Assembly: GCA_003559395.1 (NCBI GenBank)
Contig: PWLL01000059.1
Location: 1-9,617, forward strand
Reading direction: 5' to 3'
Source of the DNA: Candidatus Iainarchaeum sp.
GTDB lineage: Archaea; Iainarchaeota; Iainarchaeia; Iainarchaeales; CSSED10-239
DNA length: 9,617 nucleotides
Under the pieces are notes generated by a model. It was not told the origin of the DNA, made no database searches, and saw only the letters and a program-made list of their open reading frames with translations. Every line of letters begins with the position of its first letter. Within the stretch, counting starts at the first letter, position 1. Shown here one piece after another: positions 4,215 through 5,306 of this stretch. Position numbers and translations under genes: made by a program.

Positions 4215-5306
4215 ATGATTGTTGGAATTACAGGCTTTTTAGCTTGTGGAAAAGGAACAATATCTGAATATCTAAAAGAAAAAGGATTTAAAATCTATTC
4301 TTGTTCAGATATTATTAGAGAAGAATGTAAAAAACAAAAACTTGAAATTACTAGAGAAAATCTTCAAATGCTAGGAAACCAGTTAAGAGAAAAACATGGT
4401 TCAAATATTCTTGCAAAAAGACTTGTAGAAAAAATATCTTTAGAAGAAACAAAAGGAAATCATATTTTTGTTGTAGAAAGTATAAGAACCCCTCTTGAGA
4501 TTGAAGAATTTAAAAAACTAAACGATTTTGCCTTAGTGTTTATAGATGCTGATCCAAAAATAAGATATGAAAGAGCAAAAGCAAGACTAAGAGAAAAAGA
4601 AAAAATAGATAGTTATGAAGAATTTATGGCTTCAGAAAAAAAAGAACTAGAAAGTGATGACCCAAACTCTCAACAACTTTTAAAATGTAAAGATGTCTCA
4701 GAGTTTACTGTTACAAACAACACAACTGTAGAAGAGTTTAGAAAAAACATAGATGACTTGTTGCTTAAGCTACAAATAAAATTTAGATGTCATCCTTCTT
4801 GGGATGAATATTTTATGGAGATTGCAAAAGATATATCTAAAAGAAGTAGTTGTCTGTCTACAAATATTGGAGCAATAATAACCGTAGATAACAAAATTGT
4901 TTCAATAGGCTATAACGGAGCACCAAGAAAAGTTAAAGATTGTTATGATAAAGGCTATTGTTTAAGAAGAAAACTAAACATCCCTTCAGGAAAAGAATAT
5001 GAAACCTGTGCAAGTGTGCATGGTGAACAAAACGCAATAATTAATGCTGCTAGACAAGGTGCATCAGTAATAGAAGGTACAATGTATATTTTTGGAGAAA
5101 ATAAATATCAAGGCATTGTGAATCCAATAAACGCTTTTCCATGTTTTATTTGTAAAAAAATGATTATTAACGCAGGAATAAAGAAAGTCGTATGTTCAAC
5201 AAAAGATAAAAAAATGAAAACTTTTTTAGTATCAGACTGGGTAAAAGAATGGCAAGAAAAAGATATTGTTGATGATCCTGAAAAATATTCTTCAAAATAC
5301 AAATAA
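4215..5306 (+). CDS. Two-domain fusion. Residues ~1-188 form a P-loop nucleotide/nucleoside kinase-like domain of the dephospho-CoA-kinase / UPF0200 type. Residues ~193-330 form a dCMP (CMP/dCMP-type zinc) deaminase domain.
   Basis: N-terminal domain: MIVGITGFLACGKGT (Walker-A-like, 4233-4259), VVESIRTP, FIDADPKIRYERAKAR.

C-terminal domain: SWDEYFM..A...S.RS.C....GA.I, GYNG.P, CASVHGEQNAI (HxE at 5019-5027), PCFICKKMIINAGIKKVV (PCxxC at 5139-5153).

The ATG lies 6 nt after the DUF429 stop, and the AAAGGT RBS overlaps that stop. Confidence 0.8.
   Translation: MIVGITGFLACGKGTISEYLKEKGFKIYSCSDIIREECKKQKLEITRENLQMLGNQLREKHGSNILAKRLVEKISLEETKGNHIFVVESIRTPLEIEEFKKLNDFALVFIDADPKIRYERAKARLREKEKIDSYEEFMASEKKELESDDPNSQQLLKCKDVSEFTVTNNTTVEEFRKNIDDLLLKLQIKFRCHPSWDEYFMEIAKDISKRSSCLSTNIGAIITVDNKIVSIGYNGAPRKVKDCYDKGYCLRRKLNIPSGKEYETCASVHGEQNAIINAARQGASVIEGTMYIFGENKYQGIVNPINAFPCFICKKMIINAGIKKVVCSTKDKKMKTFLVSDWVKEWQEKDIVDDPEKYSSKYK

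Follow-up and report, generated by a model that had tools for sequence, protein, structure and literature searches.

Two described groups of bacterial anti-phage proteins, AvcD (DcdV) of the AvcID toxin-antitoxin system and the deoxycytidine triphosphate (dCTP) deaminases, are built alike: a P-loop kinase-like domain at the N-terminus precedes a zinc-dependent deaminase domain of the deoxycytidine monophosphate (dCMP) type at the C-terminus. In AvcD, which consists of 532 amino acids, both domains are reported to be required, and both dCTP and dCMP to be deaminated (bioRxiv 10.1101/2021.03.31.437871). The dCTP deaminases, represented in Escherichia coli by a protein of 576 amino acids, are described as having a sparse distribution resembling that of horizontally transferred genes (bioRxiv 10.1101/2021.04.26.441389). 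We found no structure of AvcD in the literature. Here, we analyzed a stretch of 9617 nucleotides from Candidatus Iainarchaeum sp. (contig PWLL01000059.1; hereafter, the window), in which a single open reading frame (ORF) of 363 codons has the same two-domain order. An initial annotation, made from the sequence alone, had set this gene beside AvcD and the anti-phage dCTP deaminases, and had named a housekeeping fusion supplying deoxyuridine monophosphate (dUMP) as the competing reading. Our results favor the latter: the gene, carried by a DPANN-type archaeon, probably has a housekeeping role, its two-domain product acting in pyrimidine deoxynucleotide metabolism and feeding the synthesis of thymidine nucleotides. 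It most likely does not belong to the bacterial anti-phage dCTP deaminases but is a distant relative of theirs outside defence.

A P-loop kinase-like domain fused to a complete dCMP deaminase

In the product of the ORF, a P-loop domain resembling nucleoside monophosphate (NMP) kinases is joined to a zinc dCMP deaminase that is complete (Table 1). Over its entire length, starting at Met1, the protein aligned with >100 homologues of ~360 amino acids. Matches of the N-terminal domain in Pfam were AAA_18 (residues 3–136, E = 2e-14), AAA_17 and, weakly, CoaE. The domain also covered the whole length of the NCBIfam model PRK08356, with a score of 76 bits (cut-off, 189), and was related to the protein SSO1041 (phmmer, 2e-16; hhalign probability, 99.8%). 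When its profile was compared by hhalign with those of other kinases, the probability was 96.5% for adenylate kinase and 6.5% for Tmk. In the C-terminal domain, Pfam PF00383 (dCMP_cyt_deam_1) was recognized at residues 195–328 (E = 1.6e-19; 70.1 bits, gathering score 25), and both phmmer and Foldseek retrieved the dCMP deaminases of Streptococcus mutans, phage T4, human and PBCV-1.

We built an AlphaFold2 model of the 363-residue protein from an alignment of 75 homologues, which reached a mean predicted local distance difference test score (pLDDT) of 91.4 and a predicted template modelling score (pTM) of 0.73. The best match of the N-terminal domain in the Protein Data Bank (PDB), as found by Foldseek, was the AMP-bound adenylate kinase-related protein SSO1041 (3lw7), with a target-normalized template modelling score of 0.88, followed by dephospho-CoA kinases, UMP/CMP kinases and adenylate kinases. 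The domain thus adopts, in the model, an NMP-kinase fold and not the unrelated fold that the initial annotation had left open. The C-terminal domain matched the dCMP deaminases 2hvw, 1vq2, 2w4l and 7fh4, and also that of cyanophage S-TIM5. No PDB chain spanning both domains was retrieved by sequence search or by Foldseek.

Residue conservation was counted over the alignment of 75 family homologues. In the N-terminal domain, G12 and K13 of the P-loop were invariant (75/75), as were R58, E95, R120 and R124; R47, R91, E144 and Q153 were kept in at least 90% of the homologues, and position 88 was acidic in 62 of them. This pattern is the one known from active NMP kinases, whose NMP site and LID carry arginines. 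The residue that follows the P-loop lysine was glycine in 46 homologues, aspartate in 19, serine in 6 and threonine in 4. The initial annotation, which had placed all three motifs correctly, had called this P-loop atypical for its glycine at position 14. That description does not hold, because GKGT is ordinary for adenylate and UMP/CMP kinases; for example, a Pfam-recognized adenylate kinase encoded in a DPANN relative (L101) carries GVGKGT. The glycine noted in place of alanine in the HxE motif is, by contrast, a genuine deviation, as position 270 was alanine in 72 of the 75 homologues and glycine only in the window protein and one other. HAE is retained in the nearest relatives (74% and 69% identical to the window protein), and HGE is a minor A-to-G change from the family motif. 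The string PCFICKKM around the second zinc motif was a signature of the kinase-deaminase family, and the W/D-rich C-terminal tail was also found in deaminases that are encoded separately from the kinase (loci L022 and L025, see below). The window protein deviated at three of the 75 columns with at least 90% conservation (I231, G270 and K332). The nearest relatives deviated at the same number of conserved columns, indicating that the window protein is not decaying.

Homology to the anti-phage dCTP deaminases

We compared the window protein with the defence proteins at the level of both domains. The PADLOC model for dCTPase aligned with residues 1–265 in one stretch (profile positions 155–402; E = 1.7e-52, 177 bits), and hhalign related the N-terminal domain of the family to those of five defence proteins with a probability of 99.0% (E = 3.8e-18 over 177 columns). 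Motifs G(N/D)xLR, (I/V)D..(R/K)xPxE and GQQ are common to the N-terminal domains of the two groups. These comparisons indicate that the likeness to AvcD and the defence dCTP deaminases is homology of both domains, not convergence. Together with the shared domain order, they also speak in favor of a defence function, in which the protein would be an archaeal AvcD or anti-phage dCTP deaminase that stays silent until virus infection and then deaminates dCTP and dCMP, starving the virus.

Membership in the defence family, however, was contradicted by several lines of evidence. First, the NCBIfam equivalog NF041025 matched residues 2–246 at 126 bits and did not reach its cut-off of 400, whereas four plasmid-borne defence dCTP deaminases used as positive controls scored 425–504 bits. 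Second, the deaminase domain is closer to stand-alone enzymes. In tblastn searches with the window protein, defence proteins were found at ~24% identity (E from 1e-6 to 3e-9), compared with 35–43% over the C-terminal domain for stand-alone dCMP deaminases (E down to 5e-31). Using blastp, the C-terminal domain scored 69–131 bits against stand-alone or phage deaminases and 41–58 bits against defence proteins, with identities of 33–42% to stand-alone dCMP deaminases and 24–29% to defence proteins; the N-terminal domain scored at most 30 bits against the latter. A tree of the deaminase domain, computed by neighbor joining only from a small sample (70 sequences, 138 columns, 200 bootstraps), placed the window protein outside a clade of the five defence proteins that had 100% bootstrap support. 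A split supported at 95% set the window deaminase in a clade together with fused and split deaminases and some stand-alone ones of the Clostridia type.

Third, the proteins differ in size and motifs. The window protein is shorter than AvcD, as had been remarked initially, and than the E. coli dCTP deaminase; the defence proteins that we fetched had 499–527 amino acids. It lacks the N- and C-terminal extensions of the defence proteins as well as an insertion of ~30–40 residues in their deaminase domain, and the deaminase envelope accordingly comprises 154 amino acids, compared with 178–193 in the defence proteins. The GK of the P-loop, which is invariant in the window family, is replaced in the defence proteins by G(L/F)CGAVGSG(V/I)K(S/T), and the lysine is missing altogether in those of Zymomonas and V. 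nigripulchritudo.

Fourth, the genomic setting is different. The five plasmid defence genes adjoin insertion sequence elements, a recombinase gene and Cas3, or relaxase genes, or sit on a 4.6-kb plasmid, whereas the window gene belongs to a thymidylate-operon setting (see below). Only six bases separate it from the stop codon of the upstream gene (4 to ~20 in relatives), which leaves no intergenic room for an AvcI-like RNA locus. Scans of the window for Rfam families and tRNAs were empty, although an RNA may lie inside the neighboring gene. When all ORFs of the window were scanned with PADLOC, only three matched: the kinase-deaminase itself, the upstream DUF429 gene and a methyltransferase gene (mad2). 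The DUF429 product matched the phage defence candidate PDC-S44 (E = 1.4e-76), which would favor a defence function. We discounted this match and that of the methyltransferase for the reasons given below, and rejected the reading of the region as a defence island, the window containing no other defence gene. Finally, the fused form was absent among the best 80 IMG/VR viral-contig matches listed, which cover the deaminase domain only.

Of the parallel drawn initially, the layout and the homology therefore stand, whereas membership in the anti-phage family does not, given the NF041025 score, the tree, the size and the context. With homology to the defence proteins extending over both domains, the family looks like a housekeeping relative of theirs.

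The gene is a fixed member of a thymidylate-synthesis neighborhood

We examined the loci of relatives. In the closest one (L103, 74% identical), the orthologue ends a packed, co-directional cluster, glyA-ndt-tmk-thyA-orf109-folA-GENE, in which four bases lie between folA and the kinase-deaminase gene; ndt, here and in L099, denotes a nucleoside 2-deoxyribosyltransferase gene and orf109 an ORF of 109 amino acids. The order is glyA-..-thyA-folA-GENE in L097, DXR-like, DtdA, .., glyA-orf-thyX-GENE in L002 and glyA-ndt-ndt-tmk-HAD-orf-thyX-GENE in L099. In L001, tmk overlaps the start of the kinase-deaminase gene by four bases, and on a 556-kb contig of Woesearchaeota (L003), tmk-thyX is divergent from it. 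Thymidylate genes (thyA or thyX, tmk, folA, glyA) thus adjoin the orthologue in six of the seven DPANN relatives, and a thymidylate or nucleotide-metabolism context is common to all seven, including L101 (ndk-adk-helicase-GENE-pyrimidine 5'-nucleotidase). This syntenic context, which spans relatives 44–74% identical to the window protein, is a thymidylate cluster and not a defence island. Of all our results, this context tells the most about the gene. We conclude that the kinase-deaminase gene is a fixed member of a thymidylate-synthesis neighborhood, in which thyA plus folA and thyX are interchangeable.

The composition of the neighborhood itself varies. The same syntenic position in related DPANN genomes is accompanied by thyA plus folA, by thyX or by tmk alone, and L001, L002, L097, L099 and L103 display local ThyA/ThyX displacement and operon turnover, with ndt genes that come and go.

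Downstream of the gene, the window is syntenic with relatives over genes for an asparagine synthase/Dph6 protein, U32, a methyltransferase and MscS, and the gene and its downstream neighbors are 76% identical to L103 at the nucleotide level over 4.7 kb. The locus of L001 runs on into RpoA'', L7Ae, S12, S7 and EF-2. The G+C content of the window is ~26% throughout; together with the 76% identity to L103, this even composition gives no hint of recent transfer.

Upstream of the gene, the window has been rearranged. By blastn, window positions 2394–3155 align with positions 3–788 of L103, 3189–3362 with 4176–4349, and 4213–8910 with 4364–9075. These blocks skip ~3.4 kb of L103, which is hence missing from the window. 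As comparisons with L103 by blastn and blastp showed, the lost segment includes ndt, tmk, thyA and orf109 in full, and with it glyA has lost its 3' part and folA its 5' part. The glyA and folA remnants that the initial annotation had seen near the gene are indeed there, in the form of an in-frame glyA'-'folA chimera that is the scar of this deletion. Its product matches the Pfam domains SHMT at residues 6–182 and DHFR at residues 153–209, the junction falls at a G-(A/G)-(S/F)-x-Y stretch present in both proteins, and the counterpart region in L103 extends from 357 to 4361. Either a true deletion in the population or an artefact of assembly could account for the chimera. An insertion of ~0.85 kb brought in the DUF429 gene, which lies between the folA remnant and the kinase-deaminase gene; it was beside the latter in none of the eight relatives examined.

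A widespread module of kinase and dCMP deaminase

To describe the family, we searched ~5.8 billion proteins and obtained 1388 matches at E ≤ 1e-5, the best 120 of which were nearly all of ~350–380 amino acids with the same two domains. Its named sources were DPANN archaea (Woesearchaeota, Nanoarchaeota and 'ainarchaeum'), the candidate phyla radiation (CPR/Patescibacteria), Peregrinibacteria, Nitrospirota and KSB1, and the members carried the database labels 'AAA family ATPase' or 'dCMP deaminase'.

We further surveyed the arrangement of the two partners in 80 loci from GTDB species genomes; the scan from which these were taken listed at least 600 stretches, and the counts are not an estimate of prevalence. 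Kinase and deaminase were fused in three or four of the loci. Split but adjacent genes were found in the order kinase–deaminase in 11 and deaminase–kinase in five, and a deaminase without a kinase partner in 60, mostly from Firmicutes. For example, in a locus of Aminicenantes (L022), the kinase gene (5980–6522) is followed by the deaminase gene (6519–7028) with a four-base overlap, and in one of Aenigmarchaeota (L025), the deaminase gene (2700–3236) precedes and overlaps the kinase gene (3233–3769). The separate kinases scored about as well with PRK08356 as with the N-terminal part of NF041025, and that of L025 additionally showed weak matches to models of archaeal (d)CMP kinase and UMP-CMP kinase. 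In several CPR-type loci, tmk lies directly 3' of the module, and glyA precedes several of the stand-alone deaminase relatives. Serine hydroxymethyltransferase-like neighbors of the Aminicenantes loci were set aside, as they are ~26% identical and may be other aminotransferases. As a separate observation, L021 (429 amino acids) and L042 (316 amino acids) contain candidate deaminase-first fusions, with the gene models taken as given.

When two partners are found fused, split and in swapped order, this is classic evidence of their working together, and it suggests as much for the kinase and the deaminase. The modest novelty here lies in a widespread and uncharacterized kinase-dCMP-deaminase module that is a non-defence homologue of AvcD and the dCTP deaminases. 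We found nothing in the literature on dCMP deaminase fusions in DPANN archaea.

Proposed function and alternatives

Thymidine triphosphate (dTTP) is synthesized along the route dCMP → dUMP → dTMP → dTDP → dTTP, in which thymidylate synthase (ThyA or ThyX) acts on dUMP and Tmk phosphorylates the product. Following this established pathway, the C-terminal zinc deaminase would convert dCMP to dUMP for ThyA or ThyX. The N-terminal domain, a conserved partner with an NMP-kinase fold and apparently intact catalytic residues, would set the phosphate state of deoxycytidine and deliver dCMP. Its likeliest reaction, which we propose with less confidence, would be dCDP + ADP ↔ dCMP + ATP running toward dCMP and pulled by the irreversible deamination, with dCDP being the product of the reductase; alternatively, the domain may phosphorylate deoxycytidine or dCMP. 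By either route, a single polypeptide would set the branch point between dCTP and dTTP. The substrate of the deaminase is assigned from its family; what the kinase domain converts, and by which reaction, is also inferred, as is the lack of a role in defence. A more tentative extension is that the module as a whole may be a bifunctional enzyme leading from dCDP/dCTP or deoxycytidine to dUMP, and possibly also the stock from which AvcD arose through added extensions and degeneration of the P-loop. If this is the case, the module would fill a poorly understood step of thymidylate synthesis, namely, where dCMP comes from.

The thymidylate neighbors in the DPANN relatives and the grouping of the deaminase with stand-alone dCMP deaminases favor this housekeeping reading, and such housekeeping-type clustering and a conserved context are largely what the initial annotation had named as speaking against its defence hypothesis. 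However, several observations weigh against the housekeeping reading. The activities of the family, including the substrate of its kinase domain, are predicted, and we found no paper on the kinase-deaminase family or on UPF0200/SSO1041/PRK08356. The homology of both domains to the defence family, with 177 bits to the PADLOC model, makes a defence or dual role possible. The CPR relatives L004 (Peregrinibacteria) and L017–L019 are without thymidylate neighbors. Furthermore, tmk and thyA have been deleted in the window while the kinase-deaminase gene is intact; with these two genes lost here, a thymidylate role in this genome depends on thyA or thyX and tmk being located elsewhere.

Among the alternatives, the one that survives best, though we consider it unlikely, is a housekeeping deaminase whose N-terminal domain is non-catalytic and senses dCTP, dTTP or ATP, thereby switching the deaminase or aiding the binding of a triphosphate. 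Classical dCMP deaminases are under allosteric control by dCTP and dTTP, which makes such sensing plausible, and a role of this kind has been suggested for the P-loop domain of AvcD. The serine or threonine after the P-loop lysine is missing in most of the family, and the P-loop is degenerate in some of the defence proteins, those of Zymomonas and V. nigripulchritudo being without the GK; in other defence dCTP deaminases, mutations of the P-loop motif abolish function (bioRxiv 10.1101/2021.04.26.441389). On the other hand, the P-loop lysine and the NMP-site and LID arginines of the window family are invariant or nearly so, beyond what a binding domain usually needs, GKG is usual in active adenylate and UMP-CMP kinases, and the partner is also encoded separately at full kinase length.

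A salvage enzyme is slightly less probable still. In that case, the N-terminal domain would be a deoxycytidine kinase producing dCMP, which the deaminase would turn into dUMP, an arrangement that would suit host-dependent DPANN and CPR cells lacking de novo pyrimidine synthesis. The concentration of the family in these two groups fits this idea, as do the nucleoside 2-deoxyribosyltransferase genes in the same operon of L103 and L099 and the closeness of the fold to that of dephospho-CoA kinases, enzymes that transfer phosphate to a hydroxyl of ribose. However, the best relatives of the domain are AMP-bound SSO1041 and NMP kinases, not nucleoside kinases of the dNK family, and the module also occurs in Aminicenantes.

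The archaeal AvcD-like defence protein considered above is highly improbable, even though the intact state of the gene beside its deleted thymidylate partners would fit it; if the protein has any role in defence, that role would be minor or additional.

Other features of the window

The coordinates of the features are collected in Table 1. The DUF429 protein has homologues of 55–79% identity in Woese-, Pace-, Nano-, Aenigm-, Parv- and Marsarchaeota and in Methanomethylicota, and the nearest of these is flanked by unrelated genes. Being so highly conserved across archaeal phyla and found in other contexts, it was rejected as evidence of a defence island, and we regard it as a conserved gene of archaea that was relocated.

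Table 1. Coordinates of the kinase-deaminase gene, its domains and motifs, and other features of the window
Feature	Position	Strand	Basis or remark
Kinase-dCMP deaminase gene, 363 amino acids plus stop	4215..5306	+	ATG-initiated; ORF list
N-terminal NMP-kinase-like P-loop domain, residues 1–188, UPF0200/SSO1041 type	4215..4778	+	Pfam, NCBIfam, phmmer, Foldseek, hhalign
P-loop GFLACGKGT, residues 7–15	4233..4259	+	GxxxxGKGT of adenylate/UMP-CMP-kinase type
C-terminal zinc-dependent dCMP deaminase domain, residues 192–345	4788..5249	+	Pfam, phmmer, Foldseek
Catalytic H-G-E, residues 269–271	5019..5027	+	His zinc ligand, Glu proton shuttle; H269 and E271 invariant
P-C-F-I-C, residues 309–313	5139..5153	+	Two Cys zinc ligands; C310 and C313 invariant
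Conserved C-terminal tail W..W...D..DD...Y	5250..5303	+	W342, W346, D350, D354 and Y358 at least 90% conserved
glyA'-'folA in-frame chimera, first ~150 codons of glyA and last ~60 codons of folA	2715..3374	+	Pfam
DUF429 gene, predicted RNase H-like nuclease	3402..4208	+	Pfam DUF429; neighbor only
DXR-like ORF, 401 amino acids	201..1406	+	Weak, sub-threshold likeness to both DXR domains
PP-loop ATPase/Dph6 fusion, 514 amino acids	5308..6852	-	Asparagine-synthase type (residues 25–164) and Dph6 (residues 291–510)
Class I S-adenosylmethionine-dependent methyltransferase	8158..8925	+	PADLOC mad2, 59 bits

The mad2 match of the methyltransferase was confined to the generic core (residues 29–170); this gene, which is syntenic in relatives, is probably not a defence gene. 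In the PP-loop/Dph6 fusion, the Dph6 domain (archaeal diphthine-ammonia ligase) scored above its equivalog cut-off, and the fusion is kept at 493–516 amino acids in L001, L002, L097 and L103. The window also encodes a D-aminoacyl-tRNA deacylase which, like the diphthine-ammonia ligase, is of archaeal type. The DXR-like ORF matched Pfam DXPR_C (E = 7.8e-5) and NCBIfam PRK12464 (44 bits, cut-off 461), and a similar ORF lies at the same position in L002 (1–956). DXR is 1-deoxy-D-xylulose-5-phosphate reductoisomerase, an enzyme unexpected in an archaeon, as archaea use the mevalonate pathway.

Implications

There is no major surprise in these results, and the gene itself most likely belongs to ordinary metabolism. 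The PADLOC dCTPase model matched all 75 family members tested (best E = 1.4e-63), so that an enzyme of core metabolism may be listed as an anti-phage system when DPANN and CPR genomes are surveyed automatically for defence genes. PADLOC-based censuses of these groups probably over-count the dCTPase system, a miscount that the 400-bit cut-off of NF041025 avoids. The family also provides a concrete non-defence relative of AvcD and the dCTP deaminases, homologous in both domains and with its kinase motifs intact; comparing the two could reveal the route from a housekeeping enzyme to an infection-triggered toxin, and the job of the kinase domain. In addition, with a conserved kinase as the partner of dCMP deaminase, dTTP synthesis in archaea and bacteria with small genomes seems to include a coupling step that has yet to be described.

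Comparison with other known systems

The deaminase domain resembles ComEB, DCTD and T4 Cd (PF00383) in its zinc site (HxE and PCxxC), its GYNG(A)P motif and the fold of 2hvw, 1vq2 and 2w4l. It fell below the cut-off of the ComEB equivalog TIGR02571 (66.6 bits, cut-off 219), which indicates a different subfamily of dCMP deaminases from ComEB. Stand-alone deaminases from Clostridia and others that have the signature PSGxRYExC...HAEQNAI...PCFICKKM in common with it are up to ~50% identical, and such relatives are also encoded near glyA. Unlike stand-alone dCMP deaminases, the window protein is fused to a kinase domain and has a conserved W/D-rich C-terminal tail. The PBCV-1 dCMP/dCTP deaminase (7fh4) and vertebrate CDADC1 exhibit a dCMP-type fold that also accepts dCTP (PMC12088426); both are without a kinase domain and resemble the window protein in the deaminase core only.

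For the N-terminal domain, the UPF0200/SSO1041 proteins (3lw7, 3h0k; PRK08356) are the best matches in both sequence and structure over the whole length, but these proteins stand alone and carry a canonical GSGKS P-loop.

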